Source of the DNA: Promethearchaeia archaeon
GTDB taxonomy: Archaea; Asgardarchaeota; Lokiarchaeia; Sigyniarchaeales; SOKP01
Length of the DNA stretch: 32,000 nt
Assembly: GCA_046497275.1 (NCBI GenBank)
Contig: JAWOFX010000061.1
Location: 30,001 to 62,000 of the forward strand
Reading direction: 5' to 3'
Below are positions 11,573 to 19,828 of this stretch, piece after piece. The first letter of the stretch is position 1. The number at the start of each line of letters is the position of its first letter. The position numbers and the translations under genes were made by a program. Under the pieces are notes generated by a model, which saw only the letters and a list, made by a program, of their open reading frames with translations, was not told the DNA's origin and searched no databases.

Positions 11573-12277
11573 GTGCAACAAATTAATAAAAAAAAGTATG
11601 GGACAGATTACGAGAAAGAGATTCTTGAATATTTGATGAATAATCCAAGCGGTTTAACTAAAACCGATATTGCTAATGGGACGGGGTTTTCGAGAAATAC
11701 GGTATCAAAATATATCTCTATTTTAGAAAAGAAAGAAGAAGTCTATAAGAAGAAGGTTGGAGCTTACAATTTGTATTTTAGTACAAAACAAGCGTTTTTT
11801 CCCAAAAGAATTGCGCTTTCTTATTATAAAGCAATAATCGCGGGGATAAAAAATCATTATCCTTCTGAAGAGGATTTATTAAAACAAATCGGTAGAGAAA
11901 GTCTAAAATATATAGATTTTGAACAAAGTGAGAAATCTAAGAAGCAGTTAAAAGGAATAAGGGGAAATCCAATTATAAAACTCTATTTTGAGGTATTCAG
12001 AAAATTTTATCCATCGTTTGATTTATTGCAACCAAATATTAAAATATCTGAACCAGAAATTCAGAACTCAGGTAAAAAAGCTGTTTATCGATTTACCAAT
12101 TCAGAATTTATAGAAGATTCTGAAGATTTTATTTATCATTTTTATATCATAGCAGGAATCATTGAGAAACAATTTTCTGATCTTTTTAACCGTGTAATTA
12201 AATGTAATATTGAGAACGTCAATATATCTGATACTCAAGGCGAATCATTCATTGATATTTCAATAACTGTTGAATAG
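11573..12277 (+). CDS. Winged-helix transcription regulator with C-terminal ligand-binding (V4R/HNOB-like) domain, Lokiarchaeia-type
   Basis: N-terminal HTH (GLTKTDIANGTGFSRNTVSKYISILE) and a C-terminal YIIAGIIE...C segment typical of V4R-like folds. Confidence 0.7.
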   Translation: MQQINKKKYGTDYEKEILEYLMNNPSGLTKTDIANGTGFSRNTVSKYISILEKKEEVYKKKVGAYNLYFSTKQAFFPKRIALSYYKAIIAGIKNHYPSEEDLLKQIGRESLKYIDFEQSEKSKKQLKGIRGNPIIKLYFEVFRKFYPSFDLLQPNIKISEPEIQNSGKKAVYRFTNSEFIEDSEDFIYHFYIIAGIIEKQFSDLFNRVIKCNIENVNISDTQGESFIDISITVE

Positions 12278-12411: not shown

Positions 12412-13176
12412 ATGAATGAAAAAAAAGAATATGACAATGCAACTGACTTTCAAAGAAAACTATATAATACAGATATAAAAAAGGATACATATAGGATCTT
12501 TCTTATCAGAAAGATCATTGAAAAATTAATTACTAAGGATCCAAAAACTAATAATAAAATTTTAGATGTGGGATGTGGTGATGGTGAATTATTATACCCT
12601 TTTATTAATAAATCTGATACTTATGGATTTGATATAGCCGATAAACTAATAAATAAAGCTAAGAAAAAAGGAATAAAAGCCAGTGTTTTAAATCTTGAAT
12701 CTTCGAAATTTCCATTTTCCGATGAATTTTTTGATATTATAATTTGTTCTCAAGTAATTGAGCATATCGTTAATACAGATCATTTATTAAGTGAAATAAA
12801 TAGAGTTGTAAAAAAAAATGAAACCCTAATTATTTCATTTCCTAATATAAATCAACCAGCATCTTTTTTAATACAATTAATTTATGATTTGCCTCCAGTG
12901 TTCGCTGCACGATATAAATCTCCTCATGTAAGGGATTTTACATTAAAAACTATAAAAATTGCTTTAAAAAATAATGGATTTATAGTTAAAAATGTAATTC
13001 CTACTTATATATTTCCATTCAATAATAGAATCTCAAGTTTATTTGCAAAAATTTTCATTCGATTTAGTCATAGAATTATTCTAGTATGTCAAAAGATAAG
13101 AAAAGTTAAGAAAAAATACCAGACTATTCCAATAATGGGAGAAGATAAATTTGAACCTCATCAAATAAAAATATAA
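12412..13176 (+). CDS. Class I SAM-dependent methyltransferase
   Basis: ILDVGCGDG motif I, FDIIICSQVIEH, and a later PHVRDFT segment. Confidence 0.9.
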   Translation: MNEKKEYDNATDFQRKLYNTDIKKDTYRIFLIRKIIEKLITKDPKTNNKILDVGCGDGELLYPFINKSDTYGFDIADKLINKAKKKGIKASVLNLESSKFPFSDEFFDIIICSQVIEHIVNTDHLLSEINRVVKKNETLIISFPNINQPASFLIQLIYDLPPVFAARYKSPHVRDFTLKTIKIALKNNGFIVKNVIPTYIFPFNNRISSLFAKIFIRFSHRIILVCQKIRKVKKKYQTIPIMGEDKFEPHQIKI

Positions 13177-13224: not shown

Positions 13225-16200
13225 ATGAAATTTAATCAGAAGGAAAACGCTTATCCATATATAACTATTTTCAAAAAAGAACCATTCAAATCATTTGTCC
13301 AAGTTGGAAAACAAGAGATTGGCTCTTTTTATTTTAGTCAATATGATAAAATAATTGAATTTTTAAATTTTTTTAAATCAAATATTTTTGATTTTAAGAA
13401 TTTATCACTCAAAAATCTTTATTGGTTTCTCTTATTAATCAAATTTCTCAGAGAAGATATAACGGAAGAACTTAAAGGAAGAATAATAGATTTTATTTCG
13501 GTTTGTGAAATAGAAAAGAATGGAATGTTAGGTTTTATAAGATCTCCCTATTCTCAGCAAAAGAAACCCGATCTCTGGTCTACGTATTATGCATTATCAA
13601 GTCTAAGAATAATTAATTATCTTAAATTATATTTGAAATCAAAAGGAGAAACTGTAGTACTAACAGAAATCAAAGAATTTATTAATGTCCATGATAAAAA
13701 GGAAAAATTTATTCATTGTTTAGAACAAGATTGTGAGATATGCAAGAAATCTCCCAACTCAAGAACGTTATATTATGTATTAGAGTTATTAATCTTATTA
13801 GGGTATGATATTAGAAACCAGAAATCAAAATATTCATCTTATGTTGGAGTTTTAAAAGAAGATCCGGATATTGGTTTTAAAACCTTATGTCTTAAGTTTT
13901 TAGATTTAGAACTTCAAGTAACAGATAATCAAATCCAATATTTACATGAATTCCAATTAGAAGATGGAGGTTTCAGTTTTAAAGATAATTCATCTAATAT
14001 AAATAGCACATTTTGGATTAGTTATACATTTGAAAATTATTCATGGATTTTGGATTATAATCCTTCAGGAATCTATTCTTTTGTAAATCTAAATTTAAAT
14101 AAAATATTAGAAAATCAATCTTCTTGGGATTTGGGTTGCCTTAATGATATTTCAAAACTTATTATAATTTTATCAATTATCTGGAATAAATTTATTGAGG
14201 AGATTGAAAGAACCTTATTCAAAGAGATTGAAAATAAAGAGTATATTGAATTAAAACAGTTGAGAAATTTATTCGGAATTTCTAATGTGGTTGAAGAAAT
14301 AATCTCATATCTCAATTTGAATTATACATTTAATCTCAAAATTTTAAATAACAATATAGAGTTTAAAAACTTCTTAAGAAACTTAACCCCGAGTGAAAAA
14401 ATACTGGCCTCAGAATTTTATGAACAAATTTCGAATAAAAGTGTGGTTTCATTGACCGAAATAATTAAAAAATTTAATTCCAGATATCAAGATCAGCAGA
14501 TTAAAGTAAATGAACTTAGCAATTTGATCCATAAAATGAAAGACCTACACTTCTTTGAAGGGGAGATTAAAACTAAGAAAAAATTCTTAATTCGTACAAA
14601 ATATTATTTTTATTTAGACTTTATTTTAGAAAAAATAATTGTCTCAGATACAAAAATTAATACTGATCGGTTATTTGAAGAGAAAAAAATCCTGAGAGAT
14701 ATTAAAAATGACATATATAATATGACACTAAAATTACAAAATATAATACCACAAATTAGAGAGGAAATAGAAAGTTACCTTTATATCAATGAAATAGAAA
14801 TAGCGCGTCAAAGACTACGCTTCATTGTCAGAGATGCGCTTATGGAAGCCGATTTTTTGAATGAAAATATTGAGAATTCATTTAATGAAGATTTATATTA
14901 CATAAACCTTAGAGCAACTCTTGGAGCAGAAATAAATAGATGGAACCAATTATATTCTATATTAAGTTCAAATCTCAAAGAGGTTAATTCTCAATTACAC
15001 GAAAAGATAACTGAAAAAGAAGAAATAAAAAAATATAACCATCTCTTAAATGAATTGGATACTCGTTTGAAAAATTTAGATAATTATTTTAATAAGAGGA
15101 TCAATAATTTTAGGAAGTTTTTAAGCGAATCTCTCCAAGATGGTTATAATGATAAAAAATTTGGTTTAATTCTTGAAGAATTTAATTCTATAATTTTAAA
15201 ACTGGATAAATTTGATGAAGCAATCTATAAAATTTCTCAAAAAATAACGCTGAAAGAAGAGAAGTTAATTGAAAAGCATAAAAAATTAATCTCTTATTGG
15301 ATTAGCATAAAAAACGATTTAAAGAAAGTAATTACGTATTATTCAGACGGGTTAGATTACTTTCAAAACACTAACGAAAGAATAGAAGAGCTTCATAGTA
15401 ATTTAAATAATCAAATTTCTATTATAGATAAACGAGCGAAGCAAAAAGTAGATGAAGATGATTTTCAAGCAGCTTTTGAATTAATTAAAAAAGAACTAGA
15501 TATTATTTTAGAAGAAAAGCTTGGCGAGATAAAAGAAATTCAAAAAAGGGTAAAGAAACAAATAAAAAAAAAACAGAAGTTATTTATTCTGTTTAAATAT
15601 TTACAAGAAAAACTTGAATTAATGGAAGAAAAAATAATAGAAATCATCTCAGAGAAAAACCAAGTTCTAAAAGAAAAAGTTATCAAAGAAAGAAATAGAG
15701 CTAAAATAGAAAAATTTGATAATTTTGTCTCGGAAAATATACAAGAGTGCCGCAAAAAACTGATAAATCGTAAGAAAAATCTTGATGAGAAACATTATAT
15801 CCGTTCTATAAGTATTCACGATTTAAATAAGGAATTAAACAATCTCTTAGAATATTTTGAAGAATTAGATGAAAAATATGAAGAGTTTCTTGAGGAAAAT
15901 AAAAAATTAATCCATAATTTCGAAGAAAAATCTAATTTGACGATTATGCAATGGCAAAAATTCAAGGAATATTTTATGAATGAAATTGAAAATTCAAAAA
16001 ATGAATATACTAATAGAATTATTATTGAATATATTTACAATGCTTCTGAAAAATCTGGAACTAATTATGTGGATTTAAAATCCTTATCTAAGAAGTTGAA
16101 TTTAAAATGTAAGGAAACTAATTCAAGAATAAAAGAAATGATAGAATTTTCAAAATTTAATGGGGAGCTTCATGAAGATGATAAAGAAGTATTAGTTTAC

Positions 16201-17655
16201 ACAGATTCATATTATAAAAATAAAGAACTTCGTGATTTCATTAATGATAAAATTATTCGATATAATAATGAAACCATCAGTAAGACTCTAAGCTTATATG
16301 ATTCATGTATTAGGAATAGGACTCTAAGTATTAATATATTAGAATTATCTAATAGAATTAATGATCTAAATGATTTTGATACATTATTAAATGAAAGGTT
16401 CAGCCAAAAAGTTAAAGAACTTGATATAGATCTTGAGAATAGAAAATCATATAAGGAAACATATGAATATTTTGATTCTATCATTCAGGATTCAAAAATA
16501 GCAATAAAAAAAATTAAAAGAAATTTAGATTTATTTAAGAATCTTCAAAATTCAATTGAAGAGAAATATAATTCATTATCAATCGGCATAGACCAAGAAA
16601 TTAAAAGCATTAATACTGTAATCGAAGAGTCAAAATTGTATGAAAAGATTAAAGATTATTTTAATGAGAAAAAGGAGAAATTTGAAGAAAAAATCAAGGA
16701 AGTTCAAACTGATATTGAAGAGGATTTAAAAGAAGAATTAGAAAGAAATTCTAAGACTAAAAAGTTAATACCAGAATTGCGTGAAATTTTTGTAAAAAAG
16801 AAAAATTTATTTTTAGAAAATTATAACCAAAAAATCAAAAATATCAATCAAAAAATAATAATCAGAAGAAATGAGCTATTTCAAGGGGAATTATTAAAAT
16901 ATATTAATAATAGTAAGATAAAACTCAGTCAATTTTTAGGTATGCTTCAAACACGTGTAGAAGATAATATCGAAATTAAAGAATTTAAACATGCTTATTC
17001 TAAAATTGAGACCCGTGTTGAGAAAATAGAAGAAACAATTCAGGAAATTAATTCTGAAATCCAAAAAAAGGTGAATGAGTATAGTAAAAAAGCAAATGAT
17101 TTTGAAAATAAGAACAAATATATTATAGATAACTTTAAACACTATCTTAATGAATATGATTCAATATTGGTTGAGAAAGTCAAAACGCTTGAACGATTAA
17201 TATTAAAATCCTTTATCGAAATGGCAATTAAAGCAGTTTCAAATGAATTTCTCACAGTCTCTTTCCTACATAAAGAATTAAATATAAAAAAGCAAAATAT
17301 ACAAGATCATATCCTTACTCTCATAAGCTCTGGAGATTTATCCGGCAAGTATAACCCTAGAATCTGTGTTTATTATGAGGATCCTAAAGTGTTAGAAAAT
17401 ATGGATGAGAAGGAGCTTCAGGTCATAAAATCCATGAACTATAAAATGTACCGGTTTTTAAATCGATTGAAAAATTTTACGACTCATTATTCTTCAATAA
17501 TCGCGTTCTTTGTATCAATCGTGACCCTTTCTTATTACTTACTTCTACTCAGTGGATTCAATCCTTTTGTATTAATAATTCCAGCAATCATAATTATAGG
17601 CTTGATATATTATTTATTGAAAAAAAGACAAGAGGAAGAAGATATCGAAATTTAA
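13225..17655 (+). CDS. 1476-aa membrane-anchored multidomain protein: prenyltransferase/squalene-cyclase-like barrel, several PCI-type winged helices, long coiled coils and 2 C-terminal TM helices
   Basis: Repeats GMLGF...PDLWSTYYAL, PNSRTLYYVL and QLEDGGF...INSTFW. WH-like motifs include FLTVSFLHKELN...LISSGDLSGKYN and YVDLKSLSKKLN...FNGEL. Long E/K/L/I-rich heptad stretches; hydrophobic hairpin SIIAFFVSIV...LIYYLL followed by KKR. Confidence 0.75.
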   Translation: MKFNQKENAYPYITIFKKEPFKSFVQVGKQEIGSFYFSQYDKIIEFLNFFKSNIFDFKNLSLKNLYWFLLLIKFLREDITEELKGRIIDFISVCEIEKNGMLGFIRSPYSQQKKPDLWSTYYALSSLRIINYLKLYLKSKGETVVLTEIKEFINVHDKKEKFIHCLEQDCEICKKSPNSRTLYYVLELLILLGYDIRNQKSKYSSYVGVLKEDPDIGFKTLCLKFLDLELQVTDNQIQYLHEFQLEDGGFSFKDNSSNINSTFWISYTFENYSWILDYNPSGIYSFVNLNLNKILENQSSWDLGCLNDISKLIIILSIIWNKFIEEIERTLFKEIENKEYIELKQLRNLFGISNVVEEIISYLNLNYTFNLKILNNNIEFKNFLRNLTPSEKILASEFYEQISNKSVVSLTEIIKKFNSRYQDQQIKVNELSNLIHKMKDLHFFEGEIKTKKKFLIRTKYYFYLDFILEKIIVSDTKINTDRLFEEKKILRDIKNDIYNMTLKLQNIIPQIREEIESYLYINEIEIARQRLRFIVRDALMEADFLNENIENSFNEDLYYINLRATLGAEINRWNQLYSILSSNLKEVNSQLHEKITEKEEIKKYNHLLNELDTRLKNLDNYFNKRINNFRKFLSESLQDGYNDKKFGLILEEFNSIILKLDKFDEAIYKISQKITLKEEKLIEKHKKLISYWISIKNDLKKVITYYSDGLDYFQNTNERIEELHSNLNNQISIIDKRAKQKVDEDDFQAAFELIKKELDIILEEKLGEIKEIQKRVKKQIKKKQKLFILFKYLQEKLELMEEKIIEIISEKNQVLKEKVIKERNRAKIEKFDNFVSENIQECRKKLINRKKNLDEKHYIRSISIHDLNKELNNLLEYFEELDEKYEEFLEENKKLIHNFEEKSNLTIMQWQKFKEYFMNEIENSKNEYTNRIIIEYIYNASEKSGTNYVDLKSLSKKLNLKCKETNSRIKEMIEFSKFNGELHEDDKEVLVYTDSYYKNKELRDFINDKIIRYNNETISKTLSLYDSCIRNRTLSINILELSNRINDLNDFDTLLNERFSQKVKELDIDLENRKSYKETYEYFDSIIQDSKIAIKKIKRNLDLFKNLQNSIEEKYNSLSIGIDQEIKSINTVIEESKLYEKIKDYFNEKKEKFEEKIKEVQTDIEEDLKEELERNSKTKKLIPELREIFVKKKNLFLENYNQKIKNINQKIIIRRNELFQGELLKYINNSKIKLSQFLGMLQTRVEDNIEIKEFKHAYSKIETRVEKIEETIQEINSEIQKKVNEYSKKANDFENKNKYIIDNFKHYLNEYDSILVEKVKTLERLILKSFIEMAIKAVSNEFLTVSFLHKELNIKKQNIQDHILTLISSGDLSGKYNPRICVYYEDPKVLENMDEKELQVIKSMNYKMYRFLNRLKNFTTHYSSIIAFFVSIVTLSYYLLLLSGFNPFVLIIPAIIIIGLIYYLLKKRQEEEDIEI

Positions 17656-17662
17656 AATATTT

Positions 17663-19828
17663 TTAAAGTTCCTTAATTGAGGCAATCGATTCTTCTCCCT
17701 TTTTGAGATATCCTAAGTAAACAGCACGATTAAGATGTATATAGAATTTTTTTCCTTCTATTTCTTCTACCGTTGCTAATTCTTTTAACTTGCTAATCGT
17801 GATTTGATTATTTTCACTATACGTTTGAACTAACTGAATAAGTGTTTTCACATTATTATTCAAATATCTTTTCCTTTGTTTGGATTTATTTTTATTATTT
17901 TTTCCTTTCATTTTTAAAACCTTTTCCTTTACTTTATTTTTATCAATTTTTGCAACATCTGTAAAAAAGGTGACACCATAATTTTTTAGATTATTATATT
18001 TTTTAGATTCTGAGAATTTATCTAATTTTTCAAGAATCTCTTCGATAGAGCGATTTGCTAAGAGCTCCTTTTCTTTCTCTCTTCTTTCTTTGAAATTCTT
18101 AATTAAATCGAAGTCTGAAACTTCATTCGAAGAAATGTTAAAATTAATTTTTTGACGATCAATATTATCTGCTAAATCTAATTGATCCTCATCTGACAAT
18201 ACATTATTCATTGTTTTTTCTTTTCTTTCAGAAACTCTAAAAAAAGGTATATCAACTGTATCATTTGCTATCAGTATATAACATCTTCCTGATGAAGTAC
18301 GGCCTGTTCTTCCTCGTCTCTGTATATATCTTATCTCCGAAGCAACTGGTTCGTAAAAAACAATGGCATCTACATTTGGGATATCTAATCCTTCCTCTGC
18401 AACACTGGTAGCAGTTAAAATATTAATTTCTCCATTTCTAAATTTATTCAGGATTTCAATTTGTTCAGTTTGAGTAAATCCTCTATCATCTATTTTGGAG
18501 GCCTGACCAACGAATTTTTCTGCGACTAATTTATTTCCAAATTCTTCATTAATCATGTTTTTTAAAATTTCTGCTGTTTCTCGATATTGGGTAAAAATTA
18601 AAATTTTATTATTTTTAAATTCGGAGATCTCCTCTTTAATCAGCGTTATAAGCTTATCTAATTTCGGATGGCTTAAATCTTCTAAATGATTTTTTGTAAT
18701 AATAGAATTTATTAATTTAAAATGATCAGAAGTAATTATTCTCTTGGTAGATAAATTATCTTGATCCGCCTTAAATTTCATTTTATCTACAAAAGTGAGA
18801 AAAAGTCGTATATCTTGGGTTTCCAATAAGTCTTTAGCATGAAGAACTGAGATACAACTCGAACAATATGAATAAATAGAATGAATATTCAAATCATTTT
18901 CTCTAACAATTTCAATTATTTTTGGAGATGTAAAATTTAATTCATTTAAATATGTTCCATCATATCGTTCCTCATCAATTAGATTTCCATATTTTAAAGA
19001 AAATGTTAAATCTTGAGCAATTCTTAAGAAATCCAGTTTGGAATAATATCTTTTATAAGGATTAATTAAGTTCCTATCAATAAAGAATCTCAGAAAATTA
19101 TTAAAAAGATTATCAAGAATTTGACTAATTTCTATTATTTTTATAGGTAAATCTACTGGTTCAAGAATGATATCTATATCATTTATATAATCTTTTACAT
19201 CCTCATCTTTATAGGTTTTAAATACGACATTTTCAACATAAAGATTATCACAGAGTTGTTGGATTGTTTCAAAATCTTTACCTGGGGATGCTGTAAGACC
19301 CAAAATAAGTGGATCTGTACATGATTTCATATATTCTTTAGAAAGAAAGGTATAAGCATAATTCCCTACAGTTCTGTGACATTCATCAAAAATTATCAAA
19401 GATACATTATTTAAATCATAGCGTCCTCTCATTATATCATTTTTTAAGACTTGAGGGGTTGAGATAATTATTTGGGCTTTCTTGAATGTAATAAGTCTTT
19501 TTTCTGGTGGTATTTTCCCAGTCAGTGAGATAATTTTTTCAGAATCTATATCAATGAATTTTACACATGATGAATGATGCTGGTCTACTAATGGTCTGGT
19601 AGGTGCTAAAATTAGAATCTTCCCGTGATAGGGATATTTTTTTAATCTTTTTGTGATTAATAAAATCCCTATTATCGTCTTTCCTAATCCTGTGGGAACT
19701 ACGACTAATGTGTTTTTCGTCCCACATTTTTTAATTATATTATCTTGATATTCTCGATAGTGAATTTTATTATCCTTTAGAAATGCACTTTCGAAAAATT
19801 GAGATTTCTTACTAATTTTACTAACCAT
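17663..19828 (-). CDS. hef: Hef/FANCM/Mph1-family SF2 helicase lacking the ERCC4 nuclease domain, with a probable C-terminal winged helix
   Basis: REYQ, PTGLGKT, DECH, LTASPG, FVGQA, ATSVAEEGLDIP and QRRGRTGR. No ERKxxxD or HhH motif after the helicase core. Confidence 0.85.
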   Translation of the reverse strand: MVSKISKKSQFFESAFLKDNKIHYREYQDNIIKKCGTKNTLVVVPTGLGKTIIGILLITKRLKKYPYHGKILILAPTRPLVDQHHSSCVKFIDIDSEKIISLTGKIPPEKRLITFKKAQIIISTPQVLKNDIMRGRYDLNNVSLIIFDECHRTVGNYAYTFLSKEYMKSCTDPLILGLTASPGKDFETIQQLCDNLYVENVVFKTYKDEDVKDYINDIDIILEPVDLPIKIIEISQILDNLFNNFLRFFIDRNLINPYKRYYSKLDFLRIAQDLTFSLKYGNLIDEERYDGTYLNELNFTSPKIIEIVRENDLNIHSIYSYCSSCISVLHAKDLLETQDIRLFLTFVDKMKFKADQDNLSTKRIITSDHFKLINSIITKNHLEDLSHPKLDKLITLIKEEISEFKNNKILIFTQYRETAEILKNMINEEFGNKLVAEKFVGQASKIDDRGFTQTEQIEILNKFRNGEINILTATSVAEEGLDIPNVDAIVFYEPVASEIRYIQRRGRTGRTSSGRCYILIANDTVDIPFFRVSERKEKTMNNVLSDEDQLDLADNIDRQKINFNISSNEVSDFDLIKNFKERREKEKELLANRSIEEILEKLDKFSESKKYNNLKNYGVTFFTDVAKIDKNKVKEKVLKMKGKNNKNKSKQRKRYLNNNVKTLIQLVQTYSENNQITISKLKELATVEEIEGKKFYIHLNRAVYLGYLKKGEESIASIKEL

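Follow-up and report, generated by a model that had tools for sequence, protein, structure and literature searches.

What kind of protein carries a prenyltransferase-like toroid at one end of its chain, a membrane anchor at the other, and several hundred residues of helical rod interrupted by winged helices (WHs) in between? This question is raised by an open reading frame (ORF) at positions 13225-17655 of the forward strand in a 32,000-nucleotide stretch of DNA from a Promethearchaeia archaeon of the class Lokiarchaeia (assembly GCA_046497275.1, contig JAWOFX010000061.1, positions 30,001 to 62,000; hereafter the window). The ORF is open over 1,476 codons, encodes a protein of 1,476 amino acids (aa), and has a G+C content of about 24% within a window that is AT-rich throughout (22-36% G+C). 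The explanation that we favour, and to which we give about an even chance, is that the product is a cytoplasmic, tail-anchored structural protein, namely a membrane-anchored spacer or scaffold with a probably non-catalytic toroid, whose topology, extended shape and scaffolding role we infer from sequence and structural models. All of the component folds are already known; the combination and the family are uncharacterised. The first-pass annotation did not recognise the architecture from any described protein, and we likewise found no description of the family in the literature on Asgard prenyltransferase, PCI, spectrin, toroid or EzrA proteins, while a phmmer search of the whole protein against the Protein Data Bank (PDB) sequences gave zero matches. 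The features of the gene, in window coordinates, are as follows.

13225-17655, forward strand: whole gene, 1,476 codons and stop (ORF list and translation).
13249-13296, forward strand: conserved N-terminal peptide AYPYITxFKKEPFKSF, aa 9-24, with invariant positions P11, Y12, T14, F16, K17 and S23.
13330-14238, forward strand: alpha/alpha toroid head, aa 36-338, without canonical zinc ligands (Pfam PF00432, Foldseek, VIA).
13714-13743, forward strand: H-C-x4-C-x2-C knuckle, aa 164-173 (H164, C165, C170, C173), with H164, C165 and C170 invariant in 60 relatives.
14242-14388, forward strand: helix-helix-strand-helix unit, aa 340-388 (secondary structure of the model).
14389-14649, forward strand: winged helix 1 (WH1), aa 389-475, with a long beta hairpin, packed on the head (model of aa 1-500).
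14656-16059, forward strand: rod A, aa 478-945, about four spectrin-like three-helix bundles (helix pattern of the model, structural matches).
16060-16200, forward strand: winged helix 2 (WH2), PCI-type, aa 946-992, modelled at 948-991 (PCI in relatives, match to the UFL1/DDRGK1 winged helix).
16204-17244, forward strand: rod B, aa 994-1340, about three more three-helix bundles (helix pattern of the model, structural matches).
17245-17382, forward strand: winged helix 3 (WH3), PCI-type, aa 1341-1386, modelled at 1342-1384 (PCI at aa 1306-1382 of relatives).
17488-17628, forward strand: two transmembrane helices, aa 1422-1468, with a short loop holding a conserved N..P (hydropathy).
17629-17655, forward strand: short charged tail KRQEEEDIEI, after K1468, and stop (translation).

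The protein was folded by AlphaFold2 in two overlapping parts, aa 1-500 and aa 461-1476, with a 60-sequence alignment for each. The first part reached a predicted local distance difference test score (pLDDT) of 89.9 and a predicted template modelling score (pTM) of 0.86; the second part, referred to below as the rod model, combines a pLDDT of 81.0 with a pTM of 0.37, so that its local structure is credible and its overall shape is not fixed. The prenyltransferase-like barrel proposed in the first-pass annotation is borne out by both sequence and structure. The Pfam domain Prenyltrans (PF00432) matches aa 46-251 with 28 bits (cut-off 26.5) and is also matched by 27 of 28 relatives, and the model contains a complete toroid of about 14 helices spanning aa 40-338. 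The GGF/STYYAL repeats named in the same annotation are found as LGF at aa 102-104, STYYAL at aa 119-124 and GGF at aa 248-250. In a Foldseek search of the head against the PDB, the top matches are exclusively beta subunits of GGTase-I, RabGGTase/GGTase-III and FTase (E 1.6e-5 and up), followed by class II terpenoid cyclases. Re-alignment with VIA to the prenyltransferase beta subunits gave Z scores of 22.4-22.6 and root-mean-square deviations (rmsd) of 3.0-3.2 Å over 257-270 residues at 16-19% identity, with model residues 36-324 set in register against RabGGTase beta residues 17-304, which corresponds to the whole toroid. The head profile produced only out-of-register, repeat-level matches to RabGGTase beta (E 3e-4) among PDB sequences. 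In the ESM Atlas, bacterial stand-alone toroid proteins reach a TM-score of 0.70 versus 0.65-0.71 for eukaryotic enzymes including GGTase-2 beta; since bacterial toroids match about equally well, the head shows no special eukaryotic affinity. The head and the prenyltransferase beta subunits have in common the whole toroid fold and the GGF...D..YS.W-type repeat motifs, whereas the window protein adds the HCx4Cx2C knuckle and has its toroid fused to 1,100 further residues.

The two rods together comprise about 815 residues, in which long helices (about 65-75 residues) and shorter ones (about 30-40 residues) alternate. The long coiled coils of the first-pass annotation hold as far as the extent of this helical region is concerned; the rods are modelled, however, as about seven spectrin-like three-helix bundles and not as a two-stranded coiled coil. 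The rod model was searched twice, once seeded by Foldseek and once exhaustively over 48,161 PDB representative chains, and tandem spectrin repeats top both searches. The best of all 48,161 chains is beta2-spectrin R14-16 (Z 13.9, 310 of 321 residues aligned), accompanied by alpha-spectrin R15-17 (Z 13.7) and plectin SR7-9 (Z 13.5), with 296-310 residues aligned across the top spectrin-repeat matches; moreover, the four-repeat alpha-actinin rod superposes on aa 470-935 (Z about 10). Within rod B, the single spectrin repeat R16 covers aa 1221-1320 (Z 9.5, 98 of 98 residues), and aa 1100-1220 are matched by other three-helix bundles. Foldseek retrieved nothing at E <= 1e-3 with the 1,016-residue rod model, an ESM Atlas feature search with aa 478-1476 gave no usable match, and an internal duplication relating rod A to rod B is unsupported (hhalign probability 16%). 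A two-copy complex prediction for rod A (aa 478-945) scored 0.00 in a run without controls and is evidence neither way.

The modelled rods share with spectrin, alpha-actinin, plakins, nesprins and EzrA a row of three-helix bundles, each of about 105-115 residues, that continuous helices connect; their helix lengths are in agreement with those of spectrin repeats. In nesprins and EzrA the rod terminates in a membrane anchor, as it does in the window protein. The likeness has limits: the window protein matches neither Pfam Spectrin nor EzrA, lacks an actin-binding CH domain, and has winged helices inserted between its rod segments. The anchors also differ, being a C-terminal hairpin in the window protein, an N-terminal helix in EzrA and a single KASH helix in nesprins.

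Three winged helices interrupt or flank the rods. The first-pass annotation had placed winged-helix motifs at aa 339-452, 946-992 and 1341-1385, and the models give winged helices at 389-475, 948-991 and 1342-1384, respectively; the PCI type that it assigned to them agrees with Pfam PCI (PF01399), which exceeds its cut-off in 13 of 28 relatives, with every match at WH2 or WH3 and a best score of 41.7 bits (E 1.4e-10; cut-off 22). The modelled elements of WH1 are helices at 389-404, 410-420 and 428-440 and strands at 407-409 and 444-474. WH2 superposes best on the winged helix of UFL1/DDRGK1 (8c0d_E; Z 9.0, rmsd 1.7 Å over 58 residues, 19% identity), while the end of rod B together with WH3 resembles PCI subunits of the COP9 signalosome and the proteasome lid (Z 8.3-9.8). 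Profile comparison by hhalign relates WH1 to WH2 (P 1.1e-5) and WH2 to WH3 (P 7.5e-4), and the conservation profile places WH3 among the most conserved stretches of the whole protein. The unit at aa 340-388 is, judging from its modelled secondary structure, possibly a partial winged helix; its similarity to WH2 by hhalign is not significant.

PCI-like winged helices have been noted before in other archaeal proteins (PMC10936438), thus this element alone is not new. The order of a helical region followed by a winged helix is common to the window protein and to the PCI proteins of the proteasome lid, COP9 signalosome and eIF3; however, the window family has three winged helices per chain, and these are preceded by three-helix bundles in place of TPR-like solenoids. 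For the horseshoe assembly and the MPN partner of PCI complexes we have no evidence in the case of the window protein. DDRGK1/UFL1 of the UFM1 ligase is, like the window protein, a membrane-anchored winged-helix scaffold with long helices, but the anchor of the window protein sits at the opposite end of the chain, and DDRGK (PF09756) and E3_UFM1_ligase (PF09743) are absent from the Pfam matches of the window protein and its relatives. A different gene of the same genome, a 793-aa ORF on contig C127 (G000:C127:2155-3051), matches E3_UFM1_ligase (65 bits) and DDRGK; an Asgard UFL1/DDRGK1-like tandem winged-helix protein is mentioned in PMC10183829, and we identified it with this ORF.

The C-terminal two-helix anchor with its KKR/acidic tail was seen as predicted in the first-pass annotation. 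The residues 1422-1468 form the only hydrophobic windows of the 1,476-aa protein, have lysine or arginine at both flanks and lead into the tail KKRQEEEDIEI; in the hairpin loop, P1453 is invariant and N1446 nearly so. With basic residues on either side of the hairpin, the positive-inside rule would put its two ends in the cytoplasm, and since the anchor lies within the last 55 residues, its insertion would have to be post-translational. No signal peptide or N-terminal hydrophobic segment was detected in the window protein. Taken together with the basic residues beside the hairpin and a Cys/His cluster of cytoplasmic type, this predicts that the whole protein lies inside the cell.

The length of the protein is conserved over a large evolutionary distance. 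A word-indexed search returned at least 188 relatives of 1,395-1,504 aa and 44-94% identity, which are labelled Lokiarchaeota or Promethearchaeota and annotated either as hypothetical or as 'prenyltransferase/squalene oxidase repeat-containing'. In a profile search over 400 genomes of the phylum, the gene was found in single copy in 133 of the 134 further genomes from the window's family; in a sister family from the same order, which includes closed genomes, 12 of 14 genomes have it, likewise in single copy. Weak profile matches occur in three further families of the class Lokiarchaeia; the corresponding ORFs encode 1,437-1,493 aa with the same layout of Prenyltrans, PCI/helix-turn-helix and transmembrane hairpin at 18-22% identity. 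No relative was detected at E <= 1e-5 in about 240 genomes from all other families of the phylum. The Asgard-specific range suggested in the first-pass annotation is too wide: the observed range is the class Lokiarchaeia only, including Helarchaeota-labelled records. A diverse profile of aa 330 to the end, searched against 1.84 billion representative proteins, gave 165 matches at E <= 1e-3, which are the family, its fragments, the Helarchaeota variants and a tail of generic coiled-coil proteins; relatives more divergent than this profile can reach may exist outside the class Lokiarchaeia. Among complete orthologues, the length stays at 1,437-1,493 aa down to 18-25% identity, and there are almost no insertions or deletions across the 1,476 residues within the family, which suggests from the alignments that the geometry of the protein is under selection. 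In-frame stops interrupt the gene in two genomes of the family (eight in G163:C10:76766-81186 and three in G165:C262:2018-6423); elsewhere the gene is intact throughout, and these two copies may be pseudogenes or result from errors of assembly.

All structural variants that we found carry the Helarchaeota label and fall into three groups. Proteins of the first group (1,231-1,282 aa) stop before WH3 and have no membrane segment. Those of the second group (1,230-1,355 aa) keep WH3 and have the hairpin swapped for a globular domain of about 140 residues, for which a weak Pfam match to Fuz_longin_1 (E 0.043) and a 'Roadblock/LAMTOR2' cluster among the Atlas neighbours (0.88) offer a lead, not a finding, towards a Roadblock/longin domain. 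The Helarchaeota proteins P0175, P0177 and P0180 end in such a domain of about 140 aa instead of the hairpin, and the toroid of P0177 has a zinc-ribbon insertion. In the third group (605-727 aa, annotated as 'PCI domain-containing protein'), a rod is combined with a PCI winged helix that scores above the cut-off and, at the C-terminus, with a weak match to Prok-RING/zinc-ribbon; its members P0230, P0237, P0239, P0240 and P0268 have the rod B plus WH3 module in common with the family. Given these differing ends, the rod-plus-WH unit can be regarded as a module with an exchangeable far C-terminal end.

The conserved length, the folded bundles and the three winged helices of docking type together lead to the spacer/scaffold explanation. 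In the proposed arrangement, the two-helix hairpin in the last 55 residues would hold the protein in the cell membrane with both of its ends in the cytoplasm, and WH3, about three bundles, WH2, about four bundles and a compact head would follow outward from the membrane in this order. The head would consist of WH1 and a zinc-stabilised alpha/alpha toroid, the latter serving as a putative binding module for a hydrophobic ligand or peptide, and the three PCI-type winged helices would act as protein docking sites. If extended, the rod would be about 40-50 nm long, as estimated from about 5 nm per bundle. The protein could thereby function as a spacer or linker in the manner of a nesprin, plakin or EzrA, with its partners held at fixed distances from the inner face of the membrane.

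Several points weigh against this explanation. The pTM of 0.37 for aa 461-1476 leaves the extended shape unsupported by the model. Z scores of about 13-14 can be reached by helical models generally and are possibly generic, and Pfam Spectrin (PF00435) has no match in the window protein or in 28 relatives; we therefore claim a spectrin-like arrangement and not homology, and the resemblance of the modelled rods to spectrin may be convergent. Unlike its relatives, the window protein itself has no Pfam match to PCI at E <= 0.1. The register used to locate the zinc ligands of the toroid was taken from the ends of the alignment and the repeat motif, not from a residue-level superposition, and the catalytic metal site may conceivably have moved to the Cys/His cluster. 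A convergently transcribed helicase as the sole conserved neighbour says little about function, and we know of no partner, ligand or localisation for the protein.

A more specific form of the spacer/scaffold explanation, which we regard as doubtful, is that the protein constitutes an archaeal membrane-skeleton element of spectrin-like repeats: a ruler of constrained length that, by way of PCI-type docking sites and a toroid that binds a ligand, would connect the inner side of the membrane with partners from the cytoskeleton or elsewhere, with an anchoring end exchangeable for a Roadblock/longin module. If this were true, the family would provide a prokaryotic example of the membrane-cytoskeleton linkers and tethers that are thought typical of eukaryotic cells. 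The protrusions and cytoskeleton of Lokiarchaeia serve as models in work on how eukaryotic cell architecture arose; to our knowledge these are the only Asgard archaea in culture, and an orthologue of the window protein occurs among the cultured members. The family unites three fold types best known from eukaryotic machinery (toroid, PCI winged helix and spectrin-like repeats) in one single-copy, near-universal protein, which makes it an obvious candidate for a structural role in Lokiarchaeia.

The alternative that survives best is that of a chromosome-to-membrane tether or DNA-transaction scaffold, in which the winged helices would bind DNA and the adjacency to a helicase gene would reflect a shared role; we consider it unlikely. 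In one distant orthologue, WH2 and WH3 do match HTH_24 (E 4.9e-7), AsnC-type and MarR domains, and WH1 is mildly basic, with a mean net charge of +5.6. The mean net charge of WH2 and WH3, however, is close to neutral (about 0 to +1), which fits protein docking better than DNA binding, and the best Pfam and structural matches are of the protein-binding PCI and UFL1/DDRGK1 type. The neighbour in question is the following gene.

17663-19828, reverse strand: Hef-like helicase, 721 aa, with DEAD/ResIII/Helicase_C; convergent neighbour, outside the studied protein.

This is the only conserved neighbour of the family, lying tail-to-tail at a gap of 7-49 bp in the window and four relatives (two per family in two families of the order), and the pairing is kept at about 35% identity between the helicases of the two families and about 25% between the giant proteins. 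Such a conserved tail-to-tail pair at this spacing is unusual and unexplained. Against a shared role, convergent genes are not co-transcribed, and the adjacency is lost in more distant orthologues. A conserved upstream partner was considered and rejected, as the upstream genes of three family members are mutually unrelated. Directly upstream in the window are genes for an S-adenosylmethionine-dependent methyltransferase (12412-13176, forward strand) and a 234-aa HTH_24 protein (11573-12277, forward strand); since the upstream genes differ among relatives, this neighbourhood is local.

A membrane-tethered enzyme, i.e. an active prenyltransferase or a toroid resembling a class II terpenoid cyclase that would use the Cys/His cluster or Asp116 on membrane isoprenoids or proteins, appears quite unlikely to us. 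The fold and the Pfam family are those of prenyl-handling enzymes, H164, C165 and C170 are conserved class-wide, D116 is invariant, and the anchor would bring the protein near isoprenoid lipids. The catalytic zinc ligands in the C-terminal third of the beta subunits, which we take to be D238/C240/H290 in RabGGTase beta and D297/C299/H362 in FTase beta, are the residues whose conservation the first-pass annotation left to be checked, and they are absent from the in-register positions of the window protein. After the fourth GGF (aa 248-250), all 16 class-wide sequences have N/D/E-x-T/S-F-W versus D238-x-C240-Y-S-W in RabGGTase beta, and the stretch from aa 175 to 340 has no conserved cysteine or histidine in any of three alignments (two of the family, with 28 and 60 sequences, and one class-wide, with 16). 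An alpha subunit is also lacking: no PPTA repeats (PF01239) score above the cut-off in the window genome, which is 98.9% complete, the best match reaching 25 bits (cut-off 29.5) and control genomes giving similar noise. D116 belongs to the structural repeat motif, and the head and the membrane anchor are at opposite ends of the chain.

The HCxxxxCxxC cluster reported in the first-pass annotation is present as H164-C165-x4-C170-x2-C173, and takes the place of one GGF hairpin in the N-terminal half of the toroid. Of 16 class-wide sequences, 15 retain it; the remaining one, an orthologue from a closed genome that is intact in all other respects, has lost it by deletion, and one Helarchaeota variant lacks it as well. 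Conservation across the class combined with loss in these two cases is more in keeping with a structural than with a catalytic role, and the knuckle is thus a probable structural zinc site. The absence of the canonical zinc ligands together with that of an alpha subunit from the genome makes the toroid head most likely non-catalytic and a binding module for a hydrophobic ligand or peptide. The entry for prenyltransferases in an older table (PMC4917890), where they are given as absent from Lokiarchaeum, can be qualified in the sense that the fold is present, evidently not as an enzyme. Three more genes with a Prenyltrans toroid were observed in the same genome (G000:C59:9298-10626, G000:C13:26656-27123 and G000:C169:11001-11675). 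One of them is a 1,058-aa ORF about 33 kb upstream on the same contig, in which the toroid is followed by an ABC-transporter ATPase domain; the other two are a 1,088-aa ORF and a 363-aa stand-alone toroid.

The tether put forward in the first-pass annotation, if read as a golgin-like parallel dimeric coiled coil with a head that captures vesicles or other membranes, is improbable to a similar degree. Golgin-type tail-anchored tethers have an extreme C-terminal anchor and a cytoplasmic bulk, as predicted for the window protein, which also has a long helical middle and a globular far end; in addition, the C-terminus of one variant is probably a Roadblock/longin domain, and domains of this type are linked to small GTPases. 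In contrast to golgins, the anchor of the window protein is a hairpin and not a single helix, and its helices break every 30-75 residues into bundles, which match three consecutive spectrin repeats. The near-absence of insertions and deletions likewise points to a folded rod rather than a flexible coiled coil, and we know of no vesicle system established in these organisms. A surface protein with its large N-terminal part outside the cell is very improbable, for although many archaeal proteins with Prenyltrans repeats are annotated as surface-associated, the window protein has no signal peptide or N-terminal hydrophobic segment, carries basic residues at the cytoplasmic sides of both transmembrane helices and has a conserved Cys/His cluster.

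Short mismatch-free contigs from four salt-lake metatranscriptome libraries (two studies) match parts of the gene and of the genes around it and give a hint of expression, and only a hint because contigs of RNA libraries may stem from carried-over DNA. Ahead of the toroid, the conserved N-terminal peptide is modelled as disordered (pLDDT below 50 over aa 1-17) and is represented by looser P-x-W/F motifs in distant orthologues; it may serve as a short linear motif for docking or cover the toroid as a lid.

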